Positions 10,270-53,182 of a stretch of DNA of 58,885 bases are shown piece by piece. The notes under the pieces are model-generated. The model was not told the origin of the DNA. It worked only from the letters and a program-made list of their open reading frames with translations, and searched no databases. The DNA lies in the IMG/VR virus record IMGVR_UViG_3300028840_003635, positions 1 through 58,885 of that record. The stretch is one strand, 5' to 3'. Positions within the stretch are counted from its first letter, which is position 1. Each line of letters opens with the position of its first letter. The translations under genes were made by a program, and so were the position numbers. This stretch comes from a virus (taxonomy: Duplodnaviria; Caudoviricetes).

Positions 10270-11496
10270 ATGACTAATAAACTTATATGTGGTGACAATC
10301 TTTCAATAACAGCAAACATGCCAAGCAATAGTGTTGATTTGATTTATATAGATCCTCCATTTTTTAGTAATCGAAATTATGAAATAGTATGGGGAGACGA
10401 AGCGGAAATAAGAAGTTTCGAGGATAGATGGGATGGTGGAATAAATGTCTATATAGACTGGTTGAAACATAGAATCTTTGAGCTGTATAGAATATTGAAA
10501 CCTTCCGGGACTTTTTACTTACATTGTGATTGGCATGCTTCTCACTATTTGAAAGTAATGTGCGATGATATATTTAGTTACAATAATTTTAGAAATGAAA
10601 TAATTTGGTGTTATAGAGGAGCTGGATATCCCAAAAATGATTTTGGGAAAAGGCATGATAATATACTGAGATATTCAAAAACAGATGTATATACATTTAA
10701 TGTTGATGAAGTAAGAGAAGAATATGCTGAAGCAACAAAAGAGAGATTTAAACATTATATAGGCAATATTAGGGACGGAAAAGATTTTGGCGAACAAAAG
10801 CTACACCCTCTTGGCAAAAGACCAGATGATTGGTGGCAAATTCAACCAATTGCACCTTCTGCAAGAGCAAGAACAGGTTATCCAACACAGAAACCAGAAG
10901 AATTATTAGATAGAATAATTAAATCCAGCAGTAACGAAGGAGATTTAGTGCTTGATTCTTTTTGCGGATGTGGAACTACGCTTGCATCGGCAAACAACTT
11001 TAAAAGAAAATGGATTGGAATTGATATATCCCCTTCTGCAATTACTTTAATTAAAAGCAGGTTGAGTAGGATTGGAGTTAAAGAAGAAGATTATCTTGTT
11101 ATTGGTATGCCAAAATCAATTGAAGAGCTGAAGAAATTTACTCATTTTGATTTTCAGTTTTGGGTGATAAATGAATTGCATGGCATGCCAAGCCCCAAAA
11201 AAACAGGCGACATGGGAATTGATGGATTTTCTTACATGAAACATTATCCAATGCAGGTAAAACAGCAAGAAAAAGTGGGGAGAGTAGAAATTGATAAATT
11301 AGAAACAGCTATTAGTCGTTATAACGAAAACAACGAACACAAGATAATGAAGGGATTTATTATAGCATTTAGCTTTGGTAAAGGTGCGAAAGAGGAAGTA
11401 ATAAAATCTCAAAAAAGAGGATTTAAAATAAAATTGGTCACAATTCAAGAAATTTTAGACAAAAATTTTACTGTCGATGATATGATTGCATTTTAA
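10270..11496 (+). CDS. Beta-class N6/N4 DNA methyltransferase fused to a C-terminal Mrr-like endonuclease domain
   Basis: DLIYIDPPF, YPTQKP and DSFCGCGTT motifs; C-terminal GDMGIDG...MQVKQ. Confidence 0.88.
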   Translation: MTNKLICGDNLSITANMPSNSVDLIYIDPPFFSNRNYEIVWGDEAEIRSFEDRWDGGINVYIDWLKHRIFELYRILKPSGTFYLHCDWHASHYLKVMCDDIFSYNNFRNEIIWCYRGAGYPKNDFGKRHDNILRYSKTDVYTFNVDEVREEYAEATKERFKHYIGNIRDGKDFGEQKLHPLGKRPDDWWQIQPIAPSARARTGYPTQKPEELLDRIIKSSSNEGDLVLDSFCGCGTTLASANNFKRKWIGIDISPSAITLIKSRLSRIGVKEEDYLVIGMPKSIEELKKFTHFDFQFWVINELHGMPSPKKTGDMGIDGFSYMKHYPMQVKQQEKVGRVEIDKLETAISRYNENNEHKIMKGFIIAFSFGKGAKEEVIKSQKRGFKIKLVTIQEILDKNFTVDDMIAF

Positions 11497-11529
11497 TAAA
11501 TTTAACACCCATAAGTAAAAAGATCCTCT

Positions 11530-11589
11530 ATTTCCCTCTACAAGAGCTAAAATAACCTGTTTTTTCTTTTCTGAAGAAAGGTTGTTCAT
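11530..11589 (-). pseudogene. Truncated IS1-family-like transposase (first ~20 codons only)
   Basis: RBS AAGGAG then ATG at 11589; MNNLSSEKKKQVILALVEGN resembles the HTH start of these transposases, and similarity stops after VEGN. Confidence 0.7.
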
Positions 11590-11606
11590 ATTGAGTCTCC
11601 TTGTAC

Positions 11607-11635
11607 TTGACAAAGAACTCAAAAAAACATATATT
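11607..11635 (+). promoter_or_regulatory. Sigma-70-type promoter directed antisense to the tRNA genes
   Basis: TTGACA (11607-11612), 17 bp, TATATT (11630-11635). Confidence 0.65.
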
Positions 11636-11726
11636 GTATATGTGAACGTTCCTTGATTCTTTGTCAAGGTATGTACGGGGTCTTCAGCTACTTGGCGGTT
11701 GCGAAGACTCCAAGTTAATAATGCGT

Positions 11727-11794
11727 TGGAGCAGGAGGGATTTGAACCCTCTACCATGCGTTTATAAGACGCTGGCAGAACCCATTCCTGCCCC
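11727..11794 (-). tRNA. Irregular tRNA: Ala-type acceptor (G3.U70, A73), anticodon UAU (Ile), reduced D-arm, no encoded CCA
   Basis: GGGGCAG GAATGGGTTCTGCCA GCGT-CTTATAA-ACGC ATGGTA GAGGG-TTCAAAT-CCCTC CTGCTCC A. Confidence 0.75.
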
Positions 11795-11813
11795 ATATGT
11801 TTATTAATGCGGA

Positions 11814-11898
11814 TGTGAGTGAGGGGACTCGAACCCCTAACAGCTTGAACTGTGATAAGTTGGGAACTTATTCCGCATACCAGTTCCGGCACACTCAC
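11814..11898 (-). tRNA. Class II (long variable arm, Leu/Ser-like) tRNA with anticodon CCC (Gly), no encoded CCA
   Basis: GTGAGTG TG CCG-GAACTGGTATG-CGG A ATAAG-TTCCCAA-CTTAT CACAGTTCAAGCTGTT AGGGG-TTCGAGT-CCCCT CACTCAC A. Confidence 0.85.
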
Positions 11899-11907
11899 AA
11901 AACTTTT

Positions 11908-11946
11908 AAGGTTCCAGCAGGTACGTAGTGTTGGAACCTTTTTTTT
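11908..11946 (+). terminator. Intrinsic terminator
   Basis: 12-bp stem AAGGTTCCAGCA/TGTTGGAACCTT followed by a T-run. Confidence 0.75.
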
Positions 11947-12102
11947 ATTAAAATGGCAATTCTTTTTCACGTACAGGCTCCTTTTTTGGGAAAAAATAAT
12001 TTGTTTGCTCTGAAATAATGATAAAATCATCTTAAACGGTACGGGGCTTAATTAGCTTAATAGTTTTTTGCATTTAGTTACACCTCGAAAGGAGGTGATA
12101 CT

Positions 12103-12309
12103 ATGGGCAGAAACGATTTTTCAATTTGGTTTCAATCCGCAGTATGCATAGGAACTGCCTTGACAGTTTTTACCTATGAATTTATTAACATGTCGAATCA
12201 CCAAGAGAAATATCATATAGAGCCGGTAATTAAAATGCAAATCACTCCGAACCATAGTTCTTTTTATGGTTTGAGCGAAGGCACTACACCCTCCAGTGTA
12301 ATACCTTAA
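12103..12309 (+). CDS. Small single-pass membrane protein (type I toxin-like architecture)
   Basis: Strong SD AAAGGAGGTGA in hairpin CACCTC/GAGGTG; hydrophobic FSIWFQSAVCIGTALTVFTYEFI; flanked by long-range inverted repeats. Confidence 0.6.
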   Translation: MGRNDFSIWFQSAVCIGTALTVFTYEFINMSNHQEKYHIEPVIKMQITPNHSSFYGLSEGTTPSSVIP

Positions 12310-12340
12310 CTGTTCTAAGCTAATAAGCCCCATTTTTATT

Positions 12341-12496
12341 TCAAATTAGGACACTACCCTTTTTTGAAGTATTTTTACTAGGTCTTGTCGCCAATTTGCA
12401 ATTTTTTCTAGCTTTCTGCAGGAGGTCATCTATCAATTTTTTACAGAGTTCTCTGTTTTCTTTGTCTTGGTATGTTTTTATCCAGTCTCCTGTCAT
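12341..12496 (-). CDS. Small phage ORF whose 3' end is replaced by the element's TIR
   Basis: MTGDWIKTYQDKENRELCKK...NTSKK; the reconstructed empty site ends SKKLT*, the current allele ends SKKGSVLI*. Confidence 0.5.
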   Translation of the reverse strand: MTGDWIKTYQDKENRELCKKLIDDLLQKARKNCKLATRPSKNTSKKGSVLI

Positions 12497-12566
12497 ATCA
12501 ATCCTTCTCCTTCACAGGTGTTAATAAAACATTTCATGTCCTTCACAGCATTAAAGAATACTTGAT

Positions 12567-12770
12567 TTACTCTCCAAAATCCAGAAACAATATAATCTGC
12601 TCTGCTTTATTGAAAATGTCTACAGCTTTTTGATTGTTCGAAGCCCTTGTGGATTTCATTAAATTGTCCGCAATGCCCCTTATCTCTCCTGCTATATCCT
12701 TAATATTGTCAAGATGTGTATCAAGGCAATCCATGTTATTTTTCACTCTTTCTAGAATCTTATTTCTCAT
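12567..12770 (-). CDS. Hypothetical protein
   Basis: RBS AAGGAG; coupled to the upstream gene. Confidence 0.7.
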   Translation of the reverse strand: MRNKILERVKNNMDCLDTHLDNIKDIAGEIRGIADNLMKSTRASNNQKAVDIFNKAEQIILFLDFGE

Positions 12771-14163: not shown

Positions 14164-15342
14164 TTATTGTAATCTCATTGGCATAATACCAAAGTTTAAA
14201 CCTGATTTTTCATCCTTTATTGTTAGCATTGACTCGTGATCAATTCCATTTAAAAGGATAGTCTTATCTTTGCATTTCTGAAGCACCTGAAGCAAATATC
14301 CGAGATTGATACCGAAGTATAATTCATTCCCATTGGATTCAATCTCCATTTTAACAGTGCTTTCACCTTCATTTGGATTATTACTCATAAAAGACAGAGT
14401 ATTATCCTCAATTTGAAGTTTTGAACATTGGACTTTGTTTTCTGCTAACTTTTTAGCTTGTTTAGTCAATCGTACAAGGTCCTTTTTGTCAATCTCAATA
14501 TCTTTGTTGGACCTGTCAAACTCCCTGTATATAACATCTAAATTAGGGTATAATCCATATTCGAAACCTTCAAAACCGATATTTTCAATCTGGAACCAAT
14601 AACCTTTAGTTTTGCCATCTAATTTTTCATCTTCTCTTAGTATCCGGTCATAAATCTCAATTTCAAGGTCCTTTGTTTTATGTCCTGATATTCTTTTTAC
14701 CGAGTCTTTATCTATACAGATGTTAATATCATCATCCTGATAGATAAACTCAATACAATCGTTTTTAACAAAGGTAGCACGGTGACCATCACAGGATAAA
14801 AGATTATCCCTTGTAATATTCACCGTTTCCAGTGATTTTCTCGGTTCATTCTTTGCAGTAGTGTTTAACAGTGCAGAAGCCAATTTGCTAAACTTTACGC
14901 CGTCTATAATACCGATAATGTTTCCTATAACCGGATCCGGGACAAAATCCCATCGAAACCTTAATAAATCCCATGTTTGATTGATATTTAGGACGTGTCT
15001 ATTATCTCCGGGAATAGTTTCCAATTTCTGAATAGTCCTTCCGGTTATGTCATGTTGACTTCTTTCCCCTGTATCTGTAACAACAAATTTAGTTTCAGGT
15101 TTAAACTCTGCTGTCAAGGTTATATCCTCTTTTTCAGAGTTACAGTAATTGATAATATCCCTGATTGCTTGTTTGTCAACCGCACCTTCAAAGTCTCCTT
15201 CGATACAATCCGGTATTGTTTCAACCTGTCCGATTGCCAATTTGTTCCCTTTTGTCTTTATCGGTATGAGATTGTCATAATCTTTATACACCGATGTTAT
15301 AGCTTTTTTTAGTTCTGTTGCACTTTCAAACATTGCTAACAT
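14164..15342 (-). CDS. DNA polymerase III beta sliding clamp-like protein (divergent)
   Basis: SCDGHR (cf. ATDGHRL), YPN, GINLGYLL and C-terminal IMPMRL motifs typical of DnaN; 392 aa. Confidence 0.8.
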   Translation of the reverse strand: MLAMFESATELKKAITSVYKDYDNLIPIKTKGNKLAIGQVETIPDCIEGDFEGAVDKQAIRDIINYCNSEKEDITLTAEFKPETKFVVTDTGERSQHDITGRTIQKLETIPGDNRHVLNINQTWDLLRFRWDFVPDPVIGNIIGIIDGVKFSKLASALLNTTAKNEPRKSLETVNITRDNLLSCDGHRATFVKNDCIEFIYQDDDINICIDKDSVKRISGHKTKDLEIEIYDRILREDEKLDGKTKGYWFQIENIGFEGFEYGLYPNLDVIYREFDRSNKDIEIDKKDLVRLTKQAKKLAENKVQCSKLQIEDNTLSFMSNNPNEGESTVKMEIESNGNELYFGINLGYLLQVLQKCKDKTILLNGIDHESMLTIKDEKSGLNFGIMPMRLQ

Positions 15343-20959: not shown

Positions 20960-22462
20960 TTGGACAACAAACTTTTTGGGTTGAGAATAGTATCTAAAGC
21001 GGTAGTTGGATCTAATCTCTTGCAGGAGAAAAAGACCAATTACAAGAAGGCAATCCCTTCTTTTATGTATGATTCTGAGACTGGTGGGTTGATAAAGTTA
21101 TGCTGGATGCATGAAGAGTGGCATGATTTGTTAGATACCAGTAATTTTTCTTTTATTGCAGCGCCGAGGGATCATGGCAAGTCTGTTCAGGTGGTAACTG
21201 GTCGGGTAGCCTGCGAGATTGGCAACAATCCTAACATCAGGATTAAAATAATATCTGGAACGGAAGATCTGGCTAAAAAGAGGGTAAAGGCTATCAAGGA
21301 TATTATCGAGAACAGTCCTGAGTATCACGAATTGTATGGCAAGTTGAAACCTGCAAAGGCTTCTAACTGGGGAGATTTGAGCTTTACGGTAAAGAGAAAT
21401 ATTCCTGGTATCAAGGAGTCTACGTTAGAGGCTTTTGGTATTATGGGCACTGCTACTGGTGACAGAGCCGACTTAGTGGTCTGCGATGATATTGTTACTT
21501 TTGAGAACTCTATCGGTAAACCTAGCCAGAGAATTATGATAAAGAAGAAATTCTGGGGTGATATTGTCAGGTGGGTGGTCCCAAAGGTGGGGAGGTTATG
21601 GTATATCTGCACAATCTGGCATCAGGACGATTTATCTTCTGAAATTATGGGGAATATACATAAAAATCGTTTTAATATGAAATTTTATGCTATTAACGAG
21701 AATTGTGATCCTATTTGGGAGGAAAGGTATGACAAAAAGTATTTATTGACGTTGAGGGCTGAAAATCCTGCTGAATTTGACAGGGCTTACAGGAATATGC
21801 CTATTTCCGATGAAGATACCATTTTTAAGAGGGGATGGGTGCAAAATTCCATAAGAATTGACGATACTGAGGTGCTTTTTAACGAAAATACGAAGATTTA
21901 TGTAGGAGTTGACCTTGCTATATCTAAGAAAACTACTGCTGATTATACGGTAATAATGGTATTAGGTATTGATAGCGAGACAGACAAGATGTTTCCTATA
22001 GAGATGGTCCGTAAACAGGGGATGAGTTCGCCGGAAACGGCAAGAGCAGTGTTAAATATAGTGAAAAAGTGGAGACCTTCTCTTGTTTATGTTGAAAACA
22101 ATGCTTATCAGTCTAGTTTATTGGAATGGATGGAGGATTTACAGGATACAGAAGAATGGAAGTCTAACAAGTGGATAATTCCTAATGTTATGGGGTTCAG
22201 GACTGGATCTCAAAAGCATGATATGTTTGAGGGGCTTCCTTCTATGGCTAACGAGTTTCATAACGGATTATGGACTATTTGCAACCATAAAAACCCGTTA
22301 ATAGAGGGTGAGTCTCCATGTGATAACGATAATTGCATGTGCAAGTTAATAGATGAGCTTATTCATTATCCTTTTGGGACAAAGGATGATTGTGTGATGA
22401 GTTTATGGCTTGCGAGGATGGCAGCAAAGAAGGATTTAAGTTTCTTTTTTACTTATGCATAG
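20960..22462 (+). CDS. terL: Terminase large subunit
   Basis: Walker A APRDHGKS, Walker B VVCDD, nuclease GVDLA and C-terminal DDCV. Confidence 0.92.
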   Translation: MDNKLFGLRIVSKAVVGSNLLQEKKTNYKKAIPSFMYDSETGGLIKLCWMHEEWHDLLDTSNFSFIAAPRDHGKSVQVVTGRVACEIGNNPNIRIKIISGTEDLAKKRVKAIKDIIENSPEYHELYGKLKPAKASNWGDLSFTVKRNIPGIKESTLEAFGIMGTATGDRADLVVCDDIVTFENSIGKPSQRIMIKKKFWGDIVRWVVPKVGRLWYICTIWHQDDLSSEIMGNIHKNRFNMKFYAINENCDPIWEERYDKKYLLTLRAENPAEFDRAYRNMPISDEDTIFKRGWVQNSIRIDDTEVLFNENTKIYVGVDLAISKKTTADYTVIMVLGIDSETDKMFPIEMVRKQGMSSPETARAVLNIVKKWRPSLVYVENNAYQSSLLEWMEDLQDTEEWKSNKWIIPNVMGFRTGSQKHDMFEGLPSMANEFHNGLWTICNHKNPLIEGESPCDNDNCMCKLIDELIHYPFGTKDDCVMSLWLARMAAKKDLSFFFTYA

Positions 22463-23631: not shown

Positions 23632-25350
23632 ATGGGCATATTAGACGTATTTAAAAGAAAAGGTGGCAAAGAAGGACATCCTCCTGTAGAGCTAACTGCT
23701 TTTGAGAAAGCGAAAAGCGGAGCTGTTGTCTCTGGAATAGAGCCTGGACCTGCTCAGTGGTTTACCTACTTTACTGGTAAATCTGGAACACAGAGAGCCG
23801 GCAAGATGCTTACCTGGGATGAAATGCGAACTTTTTATTTAATGGTTCCAGCCTTATCTTCCAGCATAAACAGCATAGCGAGAGAAATATCAAATATGCA
23901 GTGGTCGATAGTGCCAAGAGAGCAGGGGATGAAGGTTCCTTTAAAGGTTATCAGGGATGCAACGCTATTTTTCCAGAATCCTAATTCTATGAAGCGTCCT
24001 TTTTCTCAGTTTATATACGTATTAACAAAAGGTTTGGGGTTATACTCCAGAAGTGCTATAGAGAACGCATTTGATCGGAATGACAATCTTGTGGAGATTT
24101 ATGCAAGGGATGCCAGCACAATAGTGCCATTGGTTGACGAGCATGGGATAATTCATGGATACAAGCAGATAATATATGGTGGTGGAGGGCATACAAGGCA
24201 TACGGTTAATTTTACAACAGATCAGCTTGTTTTTATAGAATACAACCCTGATGATTATGCTTTTGGTGGAGCACCTATAATTGACGGGTTGATAAATGTT
24301 TGCAAGGCTATAATAAATTCTATTTCTTATATTGCCAAGAATTTAGATTATAACGAAATACCTCCTGGTTTAGCGTGGGCTAAGGGATGGACGCAGAAGC
24401 AGGCTGATATGTTTGCAAAGAGCATGAAGGCAAAACGTGATGGAGCCAGAGTAGATTTCGAGTTTCCTATAATTGGTGGAGTTGACGAGTTTCACTGGGA
24501 GCAGTTCAAAAAGGATTCTAAGGAGACGAGGGAGCTTGAAAGTTTAAACAAGATGGAGAAGATAGTCCATCAGGCTTATGGGATTACTTCTGTGGAATCC
24601 GGAGAAGTTCAGGATGTCAACAGGGCTACGGCTTTAACTCAGATTACTATAGGTCAGTCAAAACTTATAAGACCTATGGTAGATTTACTTACTGACGAAA
24701 TAAATCAGGGAATTATCTGGAGTCATATTGATGACAGGATAAAGATAAAAGCAGAGCCTAATGTTCACAGGACAAGAGAGAAGATAATTCAGGAGAATGA
24801 AACTTTAATACCTCTGGGTTTAAGAACAGTAAATGAAGGCAGAGAGTTGTTAGGGGAGTCTAAGCTAGACGGAGGAGATAACGCAGTATTTATAATAGGT
24901 GGAACATTGATAAAAGTTTCTGATTTAGATAAGGAGTCTGTAGAAGTAAATCCAATGAACGTAAATACAAACCAGCCGTCCAAAAATCAGGCGGATAGTT
25001 CGAAGGTTGATGCTGATGTAAAGAAAATCTTTCAGGACAGAAAATATACTTTTTTAAAGAGCTATATAGGTGAATATTCAAGAGAAAAGGGCAACGTAAA
25101 AAACTCAGTCAATGAGACTGCAAACCATCTAAGGCAAAAGCTGTTTGATTATGATAAATCTAAGATGAATGTTAAGGAATTTTATAATATTATGTCAAAT
25201 GCCCTAAAAACACATCAGCATTTGTCTAAAAAAGGGTATTTAACAGAAAAGGAAGCGGAAGAAGATAGAAATGCGATAAGCGCAAGAATATCAAGGGCTT
25301 ACGATGAGTTTGCTTTTGATTTTATAAAAAACAAAGGAGAGAATAAATGA
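23632..25350 (+). CDS. Portal protein
   Basis: SSINSIAREIS, FQNPN and TVNEGRELLG motifs of HK97-type portals; follows TerL. Confidence 0.9.
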   Translation: MGILDVFKRKGGKEGHPPVELTAFEKAKSGAVVSGIEPGPAQWFTYFTGKSGTQRAGKMLTWDEMRTFYLMVPALSSSINSIAREISNMQWSIVPREQGMKVPLKVIRDATLFFQNPNSMKRPFSQFIYVLTKGLGLYSRSAIENAFDRNDNLVEIYARDASTIVPLVDEHGIIHGYKQIIYGGGGHTRHTVNFTTDQLVFIEYNPDDYAFGGAPIIDGLINVCKAIINSISYIAKNLDYNEIPPGLAWAKGWTQKQADMFAKSMKAKRDGARVDFEFPIIGGVDEFHWEQFKKDSKETRELESLNKMEKIVHQAYGITSVESGEVQDVNRATALTQITIGQSKLIRPMVDLLTDEINQGIIWSHIDDRIKIKAEPNVHRTREKIIQENETLIPLGLRTVNEGRELLGESKLDGGDNAVFIIGGTLIKVSDLDKESVEVNPMNVNTNQPSKNQADSSKVDADVKKIFQDRKYTFLKSYIGEYSREKGNVKNSVNETANHLRQKLFDYDKSKMNVKEFYNIMSNALKTHQHLSKKGYLTEKEAEEDRNAISARISRAYDEFAFDFIKNKGENK

Positions 25351-27374: not shown

Positions 27375-28349
27375 ATGGCTTTTCCAAGTTACGATGAGTT
27401 GTATCGACAGGATTTAGTCGATGTGTCAAAAGCTCTGACGACTTCTAATACGGCTGCCATTCCTGTATTTTTACCCGAAAAGATAACAGCGCTTGCAAAT
27501 TACAAAAACCCTTTCAGGGCTGAACTTCAAAGAAAGAATCAGCCAATGGGTAGTGTTTACAAGGTAGTAAGGGCTGCTTCGGGTACTGCGGACTGGTTGG
27601 CGGACGGAACAGATCCGACAGACAGAACTGGTGATCCGGCAGATACCGACTTTGCTTTTAAGCGAGTTGCTGCAAGGATCAAAATCACACAATTTAGACG
27701 GGCAATGTCTGGTACAGGACGACCTGGTATTGACCTGTTTGTTGATGAAATCAGACGTAAGGTAATGGACATCCGAGATGTTGAGGACTTAGCGTATTGC
27801 GTTGGTGCGTCTGCTACAGGACAGAACAATCCTCAGGGATTGAAGTATCTTATAGGGGATGCGCAGAGAGTATTGATGGGTTCTTGTACGGCAGGAACCA
27901 CGTTGACCCTTAAAAAGATTGATGAAACGATGGACAAGTGTGCTCCTATGAGTCCTGATTTTGCGGTAACATCACTTGCAATCAGGCGAGAATTGCACGC
28001 ATTGCTTCAGGATCAACAGCGTTATGTTAATGTTACCACTACAGCACGTGGTGGGTTTGCCCTGATGACCTATGCTGATGCTTATGTTTTCCCATCAACT
28101 AATATGAGTATTACGCAGAATTTTAACGGAACTTCTGAGGGCGATGAAACTGGTGGAACAACTGGCTCTATATATTTCGGTAATTTCGATACGTTTTATG
28201 TCGGGATACTGGCAAACGCGGACATGAAGGTTACACCGACAATGCTCGGAACAACTATTTGGGATTCGGTAGATATCGAGAGTTGGGAAACGACTGTACT
28301 TGAACATACAGGTGAGGTTTCCAAGCTAATCGGTATCGGTTACAGTTAA
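27375..28349 (+). CDS. Major capsid protein
   Basis: Position after protease/scaffold, 324 aa, GLK...TLTLKKIDE pattern of HK97-fold capsids, strong RBS GAGGTG. Confidence 0.8.
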   Translation: MAFPSYDELYRQDLVDVSKALTTSNTAAIPVFLPEKITALANYKNPFRAELQRKNQPMGSVYKVVRAASGTADWLADGTDPTDRTGDPADTDFAFKRVAARIKITQFRRAMSGTGRPGIDLFVDEIRRKVMDIRDVEDLAYCVGASATGQNNPQGLKYLIGDAQRVLMGSCTAGTTLTLKKIDETMDKCAPMSPDFAVTSLAIRRELHALLQDQQRYVNVTTTARGGFALMTYADAYVFPSTNMSITQNFNGTSEGDETGGTTGSIYFGNFDTFYVGILANADMKVTPTMLGTTIWDSVDIESWETTVLEHTGEVSKLIGIGYS

Positions 28350-46075: not shown

Positions 46076-47008
46076 ATGTTCTGGTTGAAAAGGGTAGGCG
46101 GAGAGAGCAAGTCAAACAAGGTAAGAATCACTGATGTCGGAACATTTGAGCTAGAAAACAACTATATTTGCGTTGAGCATGTTCAGGATGCTGATTTTTT
46201 AATATCTGAACATGGACGTAATTTAACAGGGATGGTATTTGAAAAAGTCGAAGATCCCAAACTTCCCGAAAAGCCAATTAAGAAAGAACAAATATTTGTA
46301 AATACTTATAAAAAGGAGAAAATGATTGTGAACCCAAATAGGAACGTATTGATTGTTACCGCCTTTACAAAAGGGTATGATCTTGTTTCTGAATATTTGC
46401 ATCCTGTTTCTAATTATCACTATTTATGCTATACAAATGATTATAAATTTACTTCTGATTTTTTTGTAGTTTCACGATTGCCGGAAGGGAAAACACCAGA
46501 AGAAAATGTTAGGCTCGCAAGGGGGATAAAGTTAAACCTTTCCGACCATTTAACTGTATCTGATTATGATTATATCATCTGGCTAGATGCTAATTGTTCT
46601 TTTATAAGAGAAGTGGATTCTTTAATTGATGACTTAGGAGATGATGATGTTGCAATATTTGGACACAGAGAAAGAAATTGCCTTTATTCAGAGGCAAAAG
46701 CGTGTATTAGGTATAAGAAGGATTCTCAGAGCGTTATAAACAAGCAGGTAAAAAAATACAAGAAAGAGGGGTTTCCTAGCAATTATGGTATGTGGGCAAC
46801 CCATTGCATTGTATATAGACCTACTAGGGAAGCTCTAAGTTTTTTTAAGATTTGGTATGCGGAAGTTACAAACCACTCATATAGAGATCAAATAAGCCTG
46901 CCGTATGCTTTAAAAAAAAGCAAAGTAAAATTTCATACACTGTTAAATGCAGAAATTTTTAGTGTAGAATGGTTTAAGTATGTATCTATAAGAGGGCATT
47001 GTGTTTAA
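46076..47008 (+). CDS. DUF616 (TOD1/MUCI70-like) glycosyltransferase-like protein
   Basis: IWLDAN, HRERNCLYSEA and RDQISLPY motifs. Confidence 0.8.
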   Translation: MFWLKRVGGESKSNKVRITDVGTFELENNYICVEHVQDADFLISEHGRNLTGMVFEKVEDPKLPEKPIKKEQIFVNTYKKEKMIVNPNRNVLIVTAFTKGYDLVSEYLHPVSNYHYLCYTNDYKFTSDFFVVSRLPEGKTPEENVRLARGIKLNLSDHLTVSDYDYIIWLDANCSFIREVDSLIDDLGDDDVAIFGHRERNCLYSEAKACIRYKKDSQSVINKQVKKYKKEGFPSNYGMWATHCIVYRPTREALSFFKIWYAEVTNHSYRDQISLPYALKKSKVKFHTLLNAEIFSVEWFKYVSIRGHCV

Positions 47009-47525
47009 GATAAAAAAGAGCGTGGAAATAAAAAAGAACGGACACCTGTGCTTCGACTTTGGGTGTGGAAAGAGTAAAAAGAAGGGGTATGTGGGAGTAG
47101 ACTGTCAAGATTTTGAATGTGTTGATATCGTGTCTGATGTAAATGGATTTAAAAATATACCAGGGAGTTCAGCTTGCAGAATTCATTCGTGCCATTTTAT
47201 AGAGCACCTAGGGCACGATGATGTATTTTTTGTTTTAAAGCAATGGATGAGAATACTTGAGAGTAGGGGGATTTTAACAATTTATTTCCCAGACATTAGC
47301 TTGGTTATACCAGAAACAAACATAAAAATTGCCATAAATCATGTGTGGGGTTCCAGAAAGGATCAATATGATTACCACAAGACATTCTGGACTGCCAGAT
47401 CGATGATGTTTATGTTGCAATATGTCGGGTATGCTAACGTAAGAACAATACCTTACTTTGGGAAGCTACATCCATACAAAGGAGACATGGCTTGGACTTC
47501 AGGAGTGGAAGGAATTAAAAAATGA
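47001..47525 (+). CDS. Class I SAM-dependent methyltransferase
   Basis: DFGCG, HFIEHL and RILESRG motifs. Confidence 0.8.
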   Translation: MFKIKKSVEIKKNGHLCFDFGCGKSKKKGYVGVDCQDFECVDIVSDVNGFKNIPGSSACRIHSCHFIEHLGHDDVFFVLKQWMRILESRGILTIYFPDISLVIPETNIKIAINHVWGSRKDQYDYHKTFWTARSMMFMLQYVGYANVRTIPYFGKLHPYKGDMAWTSGVEGIKK

Positions 47526-48202
47526 TAAATAAACGACCTTTAAAATTTTACGTTGATAAAATAAAAAATAATGAAGTCTTTAGCTTTTCGAGATATGGAG
47601 ACGGTGAATGGATATATATGACCTGCCCTTCTGGCAGAACCAGAATAAATAAAGAAATGGACTACTTCCCAGAAGCAGCCGAATCTTTAAGAAAAACAAT
47701 TTTGTTTCCGAAAGCAAGTTCTTCTTATTTTTATGGGCTTCAAAGATTAGCTCTAAAGATGTTTGCTGACAAAATACCATCCACTATTGACTGGCATGGA
47801 AGTGATTTATTTCATCATGCTTCGATAAGTGGAGCATTGTCGCCCTTAATAGCTTCTATTGTTGAGAAAGATGTTGTTTTTGTTGGACCTAGGTATTTAA
47901 AAAATATAAATAGCATCATTCCTTACGTGGATTTTATAGAGATAGACGGTAAAAATTGTTATACGCAAATACATGATATATTAAAAAGAATAAAAGATAC
48001 AAAGAGAGAATCTGGCAATATGATATATAGTTTTTCTGCCGGTGCATTTACAAACATTATGATTTATAAGCTGTATGATGAGATGAAAAATAACTGGCTT
48101 ATAGATTTTGGATCGGTATGGGACCCTTATGTTAATCAAAACACAAGGGGTTATCATAAAAAAATGACCAGGGACTTAATAAGTATAAATACAGGAGGCT
48201 AG
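47522..48202 (+). CDS. GT-D-fold (DUF1792-like) glycosyltransferase
   Basis: SRYGDGE and IDFGSVWD motifs. Confidence 0.7.
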   Translation: MINKRPLKFYVDKIKNNEVFSFSRYGDGEWIYMTCPSGRTRINKEMDYFPEAAESLRKTILFPKASSSYFYGLQRLALKMFADKIPSTIDWHGSDLFHHASISGALSPLIASIVEKDVVFVGPRYLKNINSIIPYVDFIEIDGKNCYTQIHDILKRIKDTKRESGNMIYSFSAGAFTNIMIYKLYDEMKNNWLIDFGSVWDPYVNQNTRGYHKKMTRDLISINTGG

Positions 48203-48205
48203 TTT

Positions 48206-48898
48206 GTGGTAATATCTATAATTATTGCTCACTATGGAAACAGCAAATACCTAGAAGATTGTTTACTTTCGATAGAGCAAAACACATATATACCTCATGA
48301 GGTTATAACGGTCAACACCGAAAAACCCAGAATATCTGTGGCTGAGGCGTGGAACGAAGGGATAGAGTCGGCTACAGGGGAAATTGTTGTTATTTTAAAT
48401 GACGATACCCTAGTATCAGAATTTTGGTTGTCTAGGTTGTATTGGTATTTGCAGGCAATAGATAATGCTATGGTTTCGACCCCGTCTACATCTAAATGTG
48501 CAAGCATTATATATACGGAACTCTATGACAAAATGAAACCTGATGTAAAATCAACAGCAGATGTAAATAGATTTAACAAAATAGTGTCTAAATATTACGG
48601 TCTCTCATACAAAAAACTAGCAAGCCATGAAGTTACAGGGTTTTGTGCAATGTTTAGAAAGAAGGATTGGGAGTTAGCTGGTAAGTTTTACAAGGGGTTC
48701 AAATATGCTTATGGAGAAGAAAACGATTTTTTTGACAAGTTATCAAAAAAAAAGAAAGGTGTGTTTGTTTTAGCGAGCGGGGTGTATGTTCATCACTTCA
48801 AAGGGAAAACTACAGAGAGGGTAAAGGATTTAGACCTTATTGCATGTAAGGCATTATATGAAAGGAGAAGGCATGAGCGAAGAAAAAAAACAACATAA
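48206..48898 (+). CDS. GT2 glycosyltransferase
   Basis: ISIII, AWNEG, LNDD and GEEND motifs. Confidence 0.85.
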   Translation: MVISIIIAHYGNSKYLEDCLLSIEQNTYIPHEVITVNTEKPRISVAEAWNEGIESATGEIVVILNDDTLVSEFWLSRLYWYLQAIDNAMVSTPSTSKCASIIYTELYDKMKPDVKSTADVNRFNKIVSKYYGLSYKKLASHEVTGFCAMFRKKDWELAGKFYKGFKYAYGEENDFFDKLSKKKKGVFVLASGVYVHHFKGKTTERVKDLDLIACKALYERRRHERRKKTT

Positions 48899-49442
48899 AA
48901 TAATAGTAGGTGGTATAGGAAGAACGGGTTCAACTGCTTTAATGTGTATTCTTTCTTATCTAGAGTTAGGGACTGGATTTGGGAAATATTCTTATCGAAA
49001 CGAATATATTAACAAACTATTTTTTCTTGAGGGCAGAGAAGAAGCCTATATATATAAAGAGAACGAAAACGCTGGACTTATTCCTGAAAGGTTTGATAAA
49101 TATATTGTAGATTATTTTATATTTTTACAGAGAGATATAAACAAGGCAGCAGCCAGCAGGGTTAGGAAACATCAAGAGGGTTACTGGATGGGGGGATTAA
49201 CAGCCGATACTGAATGGAAGCCTGAAAGACAAAATGCTATTTTATTAGGGAAATATAAATCTCTCAAGAGGTATTTAGAGAAGAGAGACGTCCCTGTGGT
49301 TGAAATAATTTACCCAGACTTTATAAAGGATGTTGATTATTTATATGAAAAATTGCTTTTGCCGTTTCCTTGCCTTGAAAAAGACAGGTTAAAAAAGGCT
49401 TTTGATTTAATAATCTATAAAGATACGGAGGGATATAAATGA
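48873..49442 (+). CDS. Sulfotransferase-like P-loop protein
   Basis: GIGRTGSTAL (PAPS-binding-like loop) and R...AAS motif. Confidence 0.55.
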   Translation: MSEEKKQHKIIVGGIGRTGSTALMCILSYLELGTGFGKYSYRNEYINKLFFLEGREEAYIYKENENAGLIPERFDKYIVDYFIFLQRDINKAAASRVRKHQEGYWMGGLTADTEWKPERQNAILLGKYKSLKRYLEKRDVPVVEIIYPDFIKDVDYLYEKLLLPFPCLEKDRLKKAFDLIIYKDTEGYK

Positions 49443-50062
49443 GAATAGCGGTATTAACTTGCGATAAGTATAATTTTTTGATTCCCTATTTCTGGCATTT
49501 TTTTAAAAAGAATTTTCCAGACAATCCGTATCCTGTAGACTTTGTAACTGAGACAGAGAGAATATATTTTGGGGACAATGTTTTCTATGGCGGGAAAAAT
49601 CTATGGTCAACTCTTTTGCAAAATTATCTAAAAACAGTAACAGATGACAAGATACTGATTTTATTTGATGATTACATGATTTATGGTGTAGATCTCAAAA
49701 AAACAAAGGAAGCGGAAAGTCTGTGCTGTGGGGAGGTAGGCTGTATAAATTTAATCAAAATGAATTGTGAAAAGGCTCTCGTTTATCCTGACGGGATGGA
49801 TGGATATCTTACCAAAGATTTTAACTCAGAGATAACTACCGGATGTCAGGCTACAATTTGGCAAAAAGATTATCTCAAGGAAGTTTATCCTGAAGGTAGA
49901 GATAGTTGGAAAGCAGAGACATACGGATACAGAAAAATGAAAACTCTGAACAAAAAGGTTTTATATTCAACCACTCCCATATTTTCTTATGTGCATGGTG
50001 GTTGCATGATAAAAGGCAATAAGGTCGATGCAGTATTTAAACAAATGGCGGAGAAATGGTAA
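49439..50062 (+). CDS. GT-A-fold glycosyltransferase-like protein
   Basis: TCDKY, ILFDDY, QATIW and WKAE motifs; cluster context. Confidence 0.55.
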   Translation: MRIAVLTCDKYNFLIPYFWHFFKKNFPDNPYPVDFVTETERIYFGDNVFYGGKNLWSTLLQNYLKTVTDDKILILFDDYMIYGVDLKKTKEAESLCCGEVGCINLIKMNCEKALVYPDGMDGYLTKDFNSEITTGCQATIWQKDYLKEVYPEGRDSWKAETYGYRKMKTLNKKVLYSTTPIFSYVHGGCMIKGNKVDAVFKQMAEKW

Positions 50063-51147
50063 TGGAATGGACAGATGCATATAATCCTTTTAATAGTTTT
50101 AAAGTTTTAGTATGGTCTAAGCAGTTACAGAACCTTGCAAATGGGAAGATTCCTTTGCCCGTAACTGTAGATACAGATCCAACAACAAGATGCAATTATA
50201 ACTGCATATGGTGTAATGCTCAGAAATATAGAGCAAAAGGACAACATACCCTGTCCGAAGAGCAGTTAGATAACCTAGTAAATATATACTCTAAGATGGG
50301 AGTTAAATCTACTTGTATTGCAGGAGGTGGCGAACCCACTTTAAACCCGCACCTTGCAAACTTTATAACAAGTCTACATGTGAACAACATAGAGACAGGG
50401 ATAATAACAAACGGATCTTCGATGACGAAAGAACAATTAGTGTCTATTGCAGAAGGGTCAAGGTGGTGCGGATTCTCTGTAGACGCTGGTAATGCGGGGA
50501 CTTATGTTAAGGTTAAGGGAATAAAAGACAGAAAATATTTCAGGATAGTCATTAAAAACATAGAATCTCTGTGTAATTTGATTCAAAAGTTTAACCTGAA
50601 ACCTAAGTGTGAAGTTGCTTTTAAGTTTTTAGTATCCCCTGACAACATCAACAGCATATACGAAGCAACGAGAGTTGCCAGGGAATGTGGAGTAGACCAT
50701 TTCCATTTAAGACCTGCCTGTGTTGATAACTTAGAGTCTTTTATTGCTCACAAGAGGTATATGTTTCATAGCTATTTAGAGACGTTTTCTGTAGAGACTG
50801 AAAAGGCAAGGAGGCTGGAAACTAAGGACTTTAAAGTGTATGTTGTAAAGCATAAGTTTAACAATTTTTTAGGCAGAAAGGTGGGTTTTAAAAAATGCAG
50901 GGCAACTCCCCTGCTTGCAACATTCGGAGCTGATGGGTATTGCCATCTATGTTTTGACCTTCGGGGTAAAGAAGATTTTATTATGTGTAAACATGAAGAT
51001 ATCATGGATTTTTGGGGGAGTGATAGGCATATCGAGATGATTGACTCAATAGATCCTGAAAAGTGTCCGAGGTGCACCTTTGGAGCTTATAACGAAATTA
51101 TAGAGAAGGTTTTTATTGAGGACAAGATGTGCAAGAATTTTCCATAA
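50056..51147 (+). CDS. Radical SAM protein with C-terminal SPASM/twitch-like Cys domain
   Basis: CNYNCIWC, GGGEP, C...ADG..CHLC...CPRC. Confidence 0.9.
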   Translation: MVMEWTDAYNPFNSFKVLVWSKQLQNLANGKIPLPVTVDTDPTTRCNYNCIWCNAQKYRAKGQHTLSEEQLDNLVNIYSKMGVKSTCIAGGGEPTLNPHLANFITSLHVNNIETGIITNGSSMTKEQLVSIAEGSRWCGFSVDAGNAGTYVKVKGIKDRKYFRIVIKNIESLCNLIQKFNLKPKCEVAFKFLVSPDNINSIYEATRVARECGVDHFHLRPACVDNLESFIAHKRYMFHSYLETFSVETEKARRLETKDFKVYVVKHKFNNFLGRKVGFKKCRATPLLATFGADGYCHLCFDLRGKEDFIMCKHEDIMDFWGSDRHIEMIDSIDPEKCPRCTFGAYNEIIEKVFIEDKMCKNFP

Positions 51148-51159
51148 GGAGAACAAATA

Positions 51160-51909
51160 ATGAATAAAGTAGCAATAATGCTTCCTGTTTATAATGCAGA
51201 AAATACATTGCAAAGATGCATAGATAGCTTAAAAAATCAAACATATCAAGATTATGTTGTGATGGCACGAGATGATGGGTCTACAGATAGCAGCCTTAAG
51301 ATATTAAAGTCTAATGAGTCTGATAAGATAAAAGTGTTTAGCAATATCAAAAATTTAGGATGTGTCCTCAATAGAAACAAGATCTTAGAGGATTCTCTTG
51401 CAATAAAAGATGTAGCATATATAGCCATACAGGATGCTGATGATTGGAGTGAACCAAACAGAATAGAAAAACAGGTCGAGTTCTTAGAAAAAAACAAAGA
51501 ATATGGAGTTTGCGGGACATGGTATTACTGGCATGATGTTAAAGATAGAGGGCAGTCTATAAAAGCAATAAAGACATTAACAGAGGACGTTGAGATAAGG
51601 AGAATGCAGTATTTTGGTAGCCAGGCATGTCATGGAAGTTATGTTATCAGGAGAGAAGTATATAATGACGTTGGATTTTATGACCCCTATTTTGTTTGGA
51701 GCCATGACAACGACTGGCTAACCAGGTTGCTTTACGGAAAAAAATGGAAGGTATGTACAATCCCGGAGAACCTATATCATGTGTGGGTAACTGAATATAC
51801 TCACTCTAAAACAAACGAAAGAAATATTTATAAACAGAAGCAAAGGTATAAAAGGTATTGTGAATCTGTCGGAGTAAAATATGAAGAAAAATATTGGAGA
51901 AGGATATGA
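51160..51909 (+). CDS. GT2 glycosyltransferase
   Basis: LPVYNAE, DDGSTD and QDADD motifs. Confidence 0.92.
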   Translation: MNKVAIMLPVYNAENTLQRCIDSLKNQTYQDYVVMARDDGSTDSSLKILKSNESDKIKVFSNIKNLGCVLNRNKILEDSLAIKDVAYIAIQDADDWSEPNRIEKQVEFLEKNKEYGVCGTWYYWHDVKDRGQSIKAIKTLTEDVEIRRMQYFGSQACHGSYVIRREVYNDVGFYDPYFVWSHDNDWLTRLLYGKKWKVCTIPENLYHVWVTEYTHSKTNERNIYKQKQRYKRYCESVGVKYEEKYWRRI

Positions 51910-52442
51910 TGGATACTTATGAAAATAAAATAAAGGGAATGATGGGAGCAAAGGATTTGATGTGGCTTTACAATATTGCTCAAAAAATGAACAGCATAGT
52001 GGAGATTGGCTGTTGGTCTGGCAAAAGTACTCATGCCTTATTGTCTGGGTGCAAGGGAACTGTATACGCTGTTGATCACTGGATTGGTAGTAGTTACAGC
52101 AACCTTACAAAAGGAGAAAAAGAAATTCACGATCTTGCTATAAGCGGAAAGGTGTTTGACAAGTTTAAGAGGAATGTTGGTCATTTTAAAAACTTAAAAA
52201 TTCATAAAATGGAAAGCATGAAGGCTGTAAAAAAATTCAAAAACAAGTCAGTTGATATGGTTTTTATAGATGGGTGTCATAGGTACAAAGATGTTTGCGA
52301 CGACATTAAAGGATGGTTACCTAAAACGAGAAAACTAATTTGCGGGCATGATATTGCTCATGGACCGGTAAAAAAAGCTGTTGATGAACTAATAGGAGAA
52401 CACGAACTAACAGAGCAAAATATATGGTTTAAGTGGTTGTGA
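51894..52442 (+). CDS. Class I SAM methyltransferase (Methyltransf_24-like)
   Basis: VEIGCWSGKS, FIDGCH and GHD motifs. Confidence 0.88.
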   Translation: MEKDMMDTYENKIKGMMGAKDLMWLYNIAQKMNSIVEIGCWSGKSTHALLSGCKGTVYAVDHWIGSSYSNLTKGEKEIHDLAISGKVFDKFKRNVGHFKNLKIHKMESMKAVKKFKNKSVDMVFIDGCHRYKDVCDDIKGWLPKTRKLICGHDIAHGPVKKAVDELIGEHELTEQNIWFKWL

Positions 52443-53182
52443 TGATGAAGCATTATTTATTAACAAGATATAATTGCGGATTATATTCTGGAGTGGGATT
52501 TGTTGATAAGAATGGGAATAGTATAAATTGCTATGCAGACAAATGGATGGAGCATAGGTTTAATTTATTCTCAAAAGTGTGTTTACCTTCTATAAAAAAT
52601 CAAACCAATCAGTCGTTCGACTGGATTGTTGTTTTGGACAAAAAAACTCCCAAGCATTTCAAGGAACAGCTTGAGGCTTGCAAAACAATACGAAAGTTTA
52701 AGATATTATACGACAAAGAGGAGGCAAGAACAGTCCCATTATCTTATATAAAAAACGATATTAAAGATGAGAATTGTATAACATCGAGAGTCGATAATGA
52801 TGATGCTCTTCACAAAAGGTTTATGGAGATTGTTGCTCAAGAAGCAGAAGATAATATGGGCAACGCCATTCTTTTTGCAAATGGGTGTTATTATGATGTA
52901 TCACAAAAAACCATGAGCCTTCACAGCTACCCGTTAAACCCTTTTATGTCTTTACCTAACAATCCAAGCAGAGACAAGTCTATTGTTTGGAGTGTAGATC
53001 ATGGTAGCATAGGAGACATATCTAAGGGTGTATTTACAATACACTGTCAACCTATGTGGCTATCTACTGTTCATTTATATAACAGGAAAAATACTTTAAG
53101 AGGTAAGATGGTGGAGATGCAATCTGAAATAGAAAACTACTTAAAAAACTTTTCTATAAACATGGAGCTTGAAATAATATGA
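52433..53182 (+). CDS. Putative rhamnosyltransferase-like GT-A protein
   Basis: RFNLF...CLPSIKNQT..F.W and SRVDNDD motifs. Confidence 0.75.
   Translation: MVVMMKHYLLTRYNCGLYSGVGFVDKNGNSINCYADKWMEHRFNLFSKVCLPSIKNQTNQSFDWIVVLDKKTPKHFKEQLEACKTIRKFKILYDKEEARTVPLSYIKNDIKDENCITSRVDNDDALHKRFMEIVAQEAEDNMGNAILFANGCYYDVSQKTMSLHSYPLNPFMSLPNNPSRDKSIVWSVDHGSIGDISKGVFTIHCQPMWLSTVHLYNRKNTLRGKMVEMQSEIENYLKNFSINMELEII

Follow-up and report, generated by a model that had tools for sequence, protein, structure and literature searches.

Which amino acid does a transfer RNA (tRNA) carry when its anticodon belongs to glycine and its body appears to belong to another family? The question is raised by a gene on the minus strand of IMG/VR virus record IMGVR_UViG_3300028840_003635, a complete record of a tailed phage from marine sediment, in one contig of 58,885 bases with 37% G+C, which was analysed as a whole and is called the window here. 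Positions 11814-11898 of the window hold a class II tRNA gene with a body that looks Leu-type, the anticodon CCC and A73. The first-pass annotation of this DNA had proposed that the tRNA is charged with leucine, or possibly with serine, and reads GGG. In our preferred reading, in which we place about even confidence and which builds on identity elements in the sequence, the gene specifies a tRNA resembling the nev-tRNAs of nematodes, and the leucyl-tRNA synthetase (LeuRS) of the host would load it with leucine.

Structure, identity elements and ancestry of the CCC tRNA

ARAGORN reported a single tRNA in the whole window (11811-11899, minus strand) and named it tRNA-Gly(ccc), which is the plain label that the first-pass annotation had expected from an automated annotator; as a practical warning, this is the label to which the anticodon alone leads. 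With the Rfam tRNA model, 11814-11898 was aligned over its full length and scored 46.8 bits, above the gathering score of 29 (E 7e-8 in 6 kb). A class I tRNA covariance model (CM), built by us from 25 ordinary bacterial tRNAs and applied without filters to both strands of the entire window, scored 29.0 bits at the same place (E 2e-5), and only one other significant place was found genome-wide, the neighbouring tRNA-like gene described below (33.6 bits). A degenerate pattern of the tRNA matched once in the window and not at all in 100 shuffles.

The gene is 85 nt long. The acceptor stem GUGAGUG/CACUCAC is paired at 7/7 positions and is followed by U8 and G9. The D stem consists of 3 bp (C10-G25, C11-G24 and G12-C23), G13 and G22 being unpaired, and closes a Leu-style D loop, GAACUGGUAUG, which carries A14, A15, G18, G19, U20 and A20a. 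The anticodon stem AUAAG/CUUAU bears the 7-nt loop UUCCCAA, in which CCC occupies 11862-11864 (GGG on the plus strand). The variable region, CACAGUUCAAGCUGUU, is 16 nt long and ends in U48; its stem of 5 bp, one of them G-U, closes a UCAA loop. The T arm reads AGGGG-UUCGAGU-CCCCU. A73 is followed by UCC, so that CCA is not encoded. Every feature that had been listed for a long-arm tRNA with a CCC anticodon was recovered at its position, and the tRNA gene at 11814-11898 is real, with its structure intact.

In the ARAGORN drawing the acceptor has an eighth pair, U(-1)-A73. A U preceding the RNase P cut site is a usual feature of tRNA genes, and the pair is read here as that U and not as an 8/5 fold. 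The 8/5 drawing also brought tRNA-Sec into consideration, which has a 6-bp D stem, a 4-nt D loop, a UCA anticodon and G73; this candidate was ruled out by the 3-bp D stem, the 11-nt D loop, CCC and A73.

The same DNA is present in contigs from sediment and seawater metagenome runs. When CCC at 11862-11864 was looked up in the contigs of three runs (X1, X2 and X3), it was identical in all, and these contigs span 11300-12700 with zero differing letters; X2 and X3 have identical record lengths and may be one data set, and X1-X3 may be the source of the virus record, in which case they are not independent of it. The presence of CCC in these contigs means that it is not a one-assembly error. X2 and X3 also contain a low-depth contig of ~508 nt that differs from window 11800-11839 at 6/40 bases, matches the 3' end of the tRNA and the spacer and then ends; its upstream part is unlike the window, and it may derive from a related phage with a variant of the tRNA locus.

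The identity set of Escherichia coli LeuRS comprises A73, A15-U48, G18G19, A20a and the T-loop tertiary pairs, with the anticodon and the long arm being dispensable (PMC9976931). The whole set was found in the CCC tRNA (A73, A15:U48, G18G19, A20a and an intact T loop), and the anticodon is CCC in place of a leucine anticodon (NAG or NAA). The glycine set comprises G1-C72, C2-G71, (G3-C70), C35, C36, a G10-Y25:G45 triple and, in bacteria, U73, among which C35, C36 and G1-C72 are the universally shared elements (PMC9976931). G1-C72, G3-C70, C35 and C36 are present in the CCC tRNA; C2-G71 (U2-A71 instead), U73 and G10-Y25 are missing, and the variable region has 16 nt with a 5-bp stem where class I tRNA-Gly has a short loop of 4-5 nt. 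The tRNA-Gly traits that had been described as absent (short variable loop, C2-G71 and U73) are indeed all lacking, and the reference tRNAs agree.

These references were incidental finds in the fetched loci, and pattern-selected tRNAs were dropped to avoid circularity. Position 73 was A in 22/22 Leu, G in 13/14 Ser, A in 7/7 Tyr and U in 4/4 Gly references; position 15 was A in all 22 Leu references, and the four tRNA-Gly, 72-76 nt in length, all had C2. Profile hidden Markov models of the reference sets classified 43/43 class II tRNAs correctly in leave-one-out tests. With these profiles the CCC tRNA scored 12.5 bits as Leu, 7.9 as Ser, 6.4 as Gly and 3.6 as Tyr; Leu is the best-fitting profile of the four, and the fit is weak. 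Taken with the identity elements, the sequence supports a body that is probably of Leu type and not of Gly type.

The 5' 34 nt of the gene found their best blastn match among 50,697 phage records in the tRNA-Leu(UAA) of marine Vibrio phage 2.275.O (MG592671.1, 191940-192020; 29/34, E 0.2). The two tRNAs have in common U8, G9, the unusual C10-C11-G12 D stem, the D loop GAACUGGUA, A73, the class II fold and the absence of an encoded CCA, and where they differ in the anticodon stem, at two positions of one strand, the opposite strand has compensating changes. The Vibrio phage tRNA has the anticodon loop UUUAAGC, the CCC tRNA has UUCCCAA, and the sequences of the variable arm, T stem and acceptor are unlike. 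The Vibrio phage gene belongs to a normal array, with 16 annotated tRNA genes in the 25 kb read. The match in the 5' half suggests that the body is a diverged phage-type tRNA-Leu. A canonical tRNA-Gly(CCC) from a Planctomycetales metagenome-assembled genome (MAG), locus L183, has the same loop UUCCCAA together with G1-C72, G3-C70, C35 and C36, whereas the short variable loop, U73, C2-G71, G10 and 4-bp D stem of canonical bacterial tRNA-Gly(CCC) are all missing from the phage tRNA.

The UAU neighbour and known counterparts

A second tRNA-like gene of 71 nt lies at 11724-11794 on the minus strand, 19 nt downstream of the CCC tRNA. It is the best match to our own CM in the window, aligning end to end at 33.6 bits (E 1e-6), and its fold has a minimum free energy of -34.4 kcal/mol (z -4.9); it was not called by ARAGORN. 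The acceptor GGGGCAG/CUGCUCC contains G3:U70 and is followed by A73, the T arm reads GAGGG-UUCAAAU-CCCUC, and in the loop CUUAUAA the place of the anticodon is taken by UAU. No pairing is seen in the D stem, and ~5 nt are missing. The Rfam tmRNA model scored 33.9 bits, under its gathering score of 47; a tmRNA remnant was dropped on this ground and on the end-to-end fit of the tRNA model.

G3:U70 is the alanine identity mark (PMC9976931). A tRNA-Ala(CGC) in a Deltaproteobacteria MAG, the only tRNA with this 23-mer among 185,579 species genomes, has exactly the acceptor, A73 and whole T arm of the neighbour; this MAG is not regarded as the host, because it has 63% G+C and nothing else in common with the phage. 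A C70-to-U change in an Ile-type ancestor could be an alternative source of G3:U70 and, as one such change would be enough, the neighbour may be decaying. Judged by their sequences, both tRNA-like genes would combine an anticodon-blind body (Leu and Ala) with a foreign anticodon (Gly and Ile).

The anticodons CCC and UAU are exactly the two major ones of the nev-tRNAs. The nev-tRNAs are class II tRNAs with class I anticodons, recorded in nematodes only among 46 eukaryotes; they derive from tRNA-Leu(UAA), have V-arms of 15-16 nt and carry A73 in all 115 genes, with Gly(CCC) and Ile(UAU) as the major types (PMC3333845). Both types are charged solely with leucine in vitro, the Gly type also as native tRNA, and nev-tRNA-Gly(CCC) decodes GGG as Leu in vitro; nev-tRNAs are weakly expressed (PMC3333845). 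They are mature and exported, with no detectable Gly-to-Leu replacement in the Caenorhabditis elegans proteome (PMC4300185). Table 1 of a 2014 review lists the nev-type for nematodes and lists none for Bacteria or Archaea (PMC4033280).

The CCC tRNA shows the structure used to screen for nev-tRNAs, namely a 7-bp acceptor, a D stem of 3-4 bp, 5-bp anticodon and T stems and 7-nt loops, and it resembles them further in A73, a V-arm of 16 nt, a body nearest to tRNA-Leu(UAA), the anticodon CCC, a UAU companion (here the gene next door) and a carrier with the standard code. It differs in origin: nev-tRNAs are nematode nuclear genes with internal A and B boxes that fall within the nematode tRNA-Leu clade, whereas the CCC tRNA lies in a phage record that also encodes terminase, portal, capsid, a bacterial-type clamp, SSB and RusA, and the two would be of independent origin. 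GGG is rare in C. elegans (0.44%) and makes up 1.2% of codons in the phage, the UAU companion is class II among nev-tRNAs but here is not class II and has an Ala-type acceptor, and leucylation is demonstrated for nev-tRNAs and predicted for the CCC tRNA. By analogy, the CCC tRNA may be regarded as the prokaryotic-virus counterpart of nev-tRNA-Gly(CCC), departing from the nev definition in origin only. The design is not unprecedented, since nev-tRNAs exist.

Allo-tRNAs of bacteria were also compared. These are long-arm tRNAs, mostly of Ser and in some cases of Ala identity, in which identity ignores the anticodon; their anticodons serve 35 codons, with UAU the commonest. They misincorporate amino acids and are toxic to E. 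coli, and transposons or toxin-antitoxin genes are frequent in their vicinity (PMC5389517). Tandem irregular tRNAs occur in bacteria as well (PMC5389517). The allo-tRNAs have 8/4 or 9/3 acceptor/T-stem geometry and mostly G73, whereas the CCC tRNA has 7/5 geometry, A73 and a Leu-type D loop, and even the ARAGORN drawing with U(-1)-A73 would be 8/5 as against 8/4; owing to its geometry and Leu-type body the CCC tRNA is not an allo-tRNA. The main text of PMC5389517 contains 0 occurrences of CCC or tRNALeu. The literature search brought up no description of a Leu-type tRNA(CCC) from a phage or a bacterium, a negative on which the supplements of PMC3333845 and PMC5389517 and the anticodon figure of the latter may bear. 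What is new is the design in a phage with a UAU partner adjoining; what is known is the nematode design and a bacterial one of other geometry.

Three collections were scanned with a pattern requiring a Leu-type D loop, UCCCA, a class II distance and a T loop, CCC and UAU being the anticodons scanned, so that the counts are not a measure of their enrichment. The metagenome contigs gave 40 pattern places, of which five loci were clean class II tRNAs with A73, a 7-nt loop and CCC; they represent four sequences (L092 = L106; L094; L107) and scored 24-31 bits with the Leu profile. The 185,579 species genomes gave 9 places and one clean CCC case (L181), from a Planctomycetales MAG in which a normal tRNA-Gly(CCC) is present too. 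In IMG/VR, none of the 9 CCC-pattern places was a clean class II CCC tRNA. The UUAUA pattern had 4 places in the genomes, including two true class II tRNAs: L213 (5417-5503; Chitinophagaceae MAG), a Leu-type UAU tRNA with A73 that scored 49 bits with the Leu profile and follows a tRNA-Gly(GCC) at a distance of 70 nt, and L216 (1424-1510, minus strand; Bryobacterales MAG), a class II UAU tRNA with G73. In the viral collection this pattern had one place, a chance match, and no Leu-type UAU tRNA was found there. Over L092/L106, L094, L107, L181 and L213 the Leu profile scores range from 24 to 49 bits. L094, L107 and L181 adjoin transposase-like open reading frames (ORFs), as judged by eye without a family library. 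None of these tRNAs is like the phage tRNA in sequence, which suggests parallel inventions or very old relatives.

Leu-type tRNAs with Gly or Ile anticodons have until now been a nematode peculiarity of unexplained purpose. CCC and UAU side by side in a phage, and look-alikes on bacterial contigs near transposase-like genes, suggest that the phenomenon is general and recurrent, and a bacterial or phage example could quickly be tested in E. coli for charging, decoding and toxicity.

Several other unusual tRNA genes were met in these scans. The tRNA of L092 (4464-4548; the same tRNA in L106) lies between a 1067-aa Cas9-like and a Cas1-like ORF (by eye), a gap that is a frequent tracrRNA position. 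Thirteen loci on low-G+C phage contigs hold a class II-like tRNA family with a 5-bp 'anticodon' stem and a 12-nt loop, UCCCA-NNN-GAAC, with a variable middle triplet, for which ARAGORN reports Trp, Leu or nothing. Fifteen loci, L100, L105 and L163 among them, contain a tRNA-Leu(CAA or CAG) with the loop CCCAAAA or CCCAGGC and hence C33 in place of the near-universal U33; these genes occur in phage arrays and also in MAGs from several phyla, and some have a normal tRNA-Leu(CAA) next to them. Long-arm tRNAs of 90-93 nt with Asn, Cys and Lys anticodons are present in phage arrays at L100 (5238-5327), L105 (7749-7841) and L163 (13786-13877, minus strand); each has the discriminator that goes with its anticodon (G73, U73 and A73; by eye), unlike the CCC tRNA.

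Genetic code, decoding and competing explanations

The genetic code of the phage was examined at its GGG codons. Across 97 greedy ORFs (18,472 codons; a few ORFs surely spurious) GGG is used 227 times, which is 20% of Gly codons and 1.2% of all codons. In the large terminase (TerL), aligned with 124 homologues, GGG codons 211, 412, 425 and 473 fall in columns with 74, 37, 86 and 53% Gly, and codon 354 in a column of 4 residues, all Gly; 5/8 GGG codons are thus in Gly-rich columns, and Leu is at most 6% in every GGG column. When TerL, portal and capsid were compared with 80 viral loci, the 17 GGG columns had a mean Gly of 0.43 and a mean Leu of 0.06; mean Gly was the same at GGA (0.45) and GGT (0.45) columns, and columns of Leu codons had a mean Leu of 0.32. 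Portal GGG codon 136 stands in a column with Leu in 33/36 homologues, but the nearest homologue, P0003, has Gly. AUA, which constitutes 53% of Ile codons, behaves like an Ile codon, its 46 columns having means of 0.31 Ile and 0.04 Ala. Recoding of GGG to Leu is rejected, since GGG codons occupy Gly columns of TerL, portal and capsid. The code of the phage is standard, the CCC tRNA is not a recoding tRNA, and reading of GGG as Leu would be mistranslation, not a changed code.

In the reading that we prefer, the gene would be transcribed along with the neighbouring tRNA-like gene at the end of a minus-strand gene block, and the CCC tRNA and the alanine-type tRNA-like RNA (UAU) would form a two-gene cassette. 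RNase P would cut the 5' end, aided by the U at -1, and the 3' end would be trimmed and CCA added. The host LeuRS would then load the tRNA with leucine by reading A73 and the D/T-loop corner and ignoring the anticodon, and the lack of C2-G71, U73 and G10 would make it a poor substrate for glycyl-tRNA synthetase (GlyRS). As the loop UUCCCAA is able to pair with GGG, any decoding by it on the ribosome would insert Leu where the codon specifies Gly; since the phage needs glycine at GGG, the tRNA would probably be present at a low or conditional level or have an off-ribosome role, as is suspected for nev-tRNAs and allo-tRNAs.

A number of observations weigh against a leucine-charged tRNA. C10 and U2 are out of place in a tRNA-Leu (position 10 is G or A in 22/22 reference Leu), and although A73 and A15:U48 stand as claimed in the first-pass annotation, overall likeness to tRNA-Leu is low, 12.5 bits with the Leu profile as against 11.5-66 bits for real tRNA-Leu in leave-one-out tests. 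No homologue of the CCC tRNA was found by exact and degenerate patterns in viral or genome contigs, so that evidence from covariation or conservation is lacking. Phage tRNAs usually supply codons heavily used by the phage, GGG is not avoided at conserved glycines, where mean Gly is as at GGA and GGT, and an efficient Leu-inserting tRNA would harm the phage's own proteins. The nev-tRNAs, for their part, give no detectable mistranslation in vivo in C. elegans (PMC4300185).

A bolder form of the same idea, to which we attach little probability, is that the pair is purpose-built, the Leu body with CCC and the Ala body with UAU mistranslating GGG as Leu and AUA as Ala, and that CCC and UAU are two 'open' anticodons recaptured by anticodon-blind bodies in nematodes, bacteria, mobile elements and phages. 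If this were true, the pair might act as a proteome-poisoning or exclusion device, during infection or once antisense control is lifted, and such tRNAs might have a general, still unexplained role.

The first alternative, possible but unlikely in our view, is that the gene encodes a working glycine tRNA, i.e. that the anticodon of a Leu-derived gene was remoulded (an alloacceptor shift), that GlyRS now recognizes C35, C36 and G1-C72, that the long arm is a relic and that the tRNA speeds GGG decoding. GGG behaves as Gly at 1.2% of phage codons, the entire loop UUCCCAA is that of the canonical tRNA-Gly(CCC) in L183, and the three Gly elements concerned are the universally shared ones (PMC9976931). 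Phage arrays hold the long-arm Asn, Cys and Lys tRNAs noted above, and alloacceptor remoulding is known (PMC4783518, PMC3923123). The long-arm tRNAs of those arrays, however, keep their proper discriminators and the CCC tRNA does not; it lacks C2-G71, U73 and G10-Y25 and keeps all Leu determinants, though an A73-to-U change alone would abolish Leu and confer Gly identity. G3:U70 in the neighbour is irreconcilable with a role of the latter in AUA supply, and nev-tRNA-Gly(CCC), of the same design, is not charged by GlyRS (PMC3333845).

Slightly less probable again would be a tRNA-shaped RNA that does not decode and serves as a processing or stability signal at the 3' terminus of the minus-strand transcript, as a decoy or sponge for a host enzyme, or as a toxic RNA held by plus-strand antisense. 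The surroundings offer several points in its favour. The CCC tRNA and its neighbour close a minus-strand block (18.3 to 12.1 kb), right after a hairpin, and no sigma-70-like site was found within 300 nt upstream of the tRNA on the minus strand. The hairpin (11909-11941, 12 pairs), followed by T8 on the plus strand, forms an intrinsic-terminator-like element at 11909-11948 (-17.1 kcal/mol, z -2.9) that a simple scan missed; on the minus strand the hairpin, 10 nt upstream of the tRNA, is not followed by a U tract. As this terminator-like element is placed beyond both tRNA genes, plus-strand read-through from the methylase gene (ending at 11496) would be antisense to them. The spacer between the two genes (11795-11813, minus strand) begins with a 7-nt 3' trailer, UCCGCAU, that is complementary to AUGCGGA at the D/anticodon-stem junction of the tRNA body. 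Three of the five other Leu-type CCC loci adjoin transposase-like ORFs (by eye), and many allo-tRNA(UAU) species, which have transposons or toxin-antitoxin genes close by, seem to take no part in translation (PMC5389517). On the other side, the CCC tRNA has a textbook decoding loop (U33, A37, 7 nt) and has kept all tertiary-contact bases, for which a processing signal has no need. The plus-strand promoter-like site at 11607-11635 (TTGACA-17-TATATT, 11/12) is weak and not above chance, with 5 such sites genome-wide against a mean of 3.1 (max 6) in 30 shuffles, and no trans-acting antisense mask was found in the genome, where complementarity to the tRNA is confined to the 11-12-mers expected by chance.

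A relic without function is improbable; on this view the phage captured a tRNA-Leu gene, drift or replacement altered its anticodon loop, and the gene is being lost like its damaged neighbour. The gene is a singleton without a detected homologue, resembles tRNA-Leu little and has odd positions 2 and 10, and the D stem of the neighbour is gone; yet all four stems and the variable stem pair perfectly and the conserved tertiary bases are intact in a genome of 37% G+C, at least two changes separate CCC from any Leu anticodon while positions 37-38 also match the Gly loop, and the sequence is identical in assemblies dated 2018 and 2021. Charging by seryl-tRNA synthetase (SerRS) through the long variable arm, the second option of the first-pass annotation, is very improbable: the arm has a 5-bp stem, SerRS ignores the anticodon and the Ser profile ranked second (7.9 bits), but A73 in place of the G73 of 13/14 reference Ser, A15 with a Leu-type D loop and U2-A71 instead of G2-C71 all disfavour it, and nev-tRNAs are not serylated (PMC3333845).

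Some further features of the surroundings were recorded. At 11807-11882 on the plus strand there is a weak mirror cloverleaf (14.7 bits, E 0.11) that ends in ACCA; its new 7-bp stem, AUGCGGA/UCCGCAU, follows from the complementarity of the trailer to the D/anticodon-stem junction. Just upstream of the tRNA, two small candidate ORFs overlap on opposite strands (12103-12309, plus; 12121-12333, minus), the former encoding 68 aa with a hydrophobic stretch behind a strong AAGGAGGTGA ribosome-binding site. No RNA runs are listed as containing this sequence.

The phage genome

Gene family searches covered 37/97 greedy ORFs of the window. They identified TerL (20960-22462), a portal (23632-25350), an HK97-like capsid protein (27375-28349) and a bacterial-type sliding clamp (14164-15342), besides genes for a small-terminase-like protein, SSB, RusA, a Cas4-like exonuclease, a DUF3987 helicase and several DNA methyltransferases. 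Among the ORFs covered there was no aminoacyl-tRNA synthetase or other aminoacyl-tRNA-using enzyme and no integrase, and a reading of the locus as an attP or integration site is for this reason unsupported. The clamp, SSB, RusA and Shine-Dalgarno-like sites point to a bacterial host.

The phage is distant from those on record. INPHARED contained no DNA match to it and no match to its capsid, TerL identity was at most 27% to INPHARED relatives and at most 37% to IMG/VR relatives, and no similar tRNA occurred in 80 loci of the IMG/VR TerL relatives. The searches returned three portal homologues and no real homologue of the sliding clamp, and no prophage relative was found in the genomes searched.

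Codon use over the whole genome is odd for a bacterial virus of 37% G+C, with AGG and AGA forming 41% and 43% of Arg codons and ATA 53% of Ile codons; Cys accounts for 1.8% of residues. Glycosyltransferase, radical SAM and methyltransferase genes form a block at 46-53 kb. This block (46076-53182, plus strand) comprises three or four glycosyltransferase-like genes, the radical SAM and methyltransferase genes and a rhamnosyl-transferase-like gene, and may be a glycan or DNA modification module.

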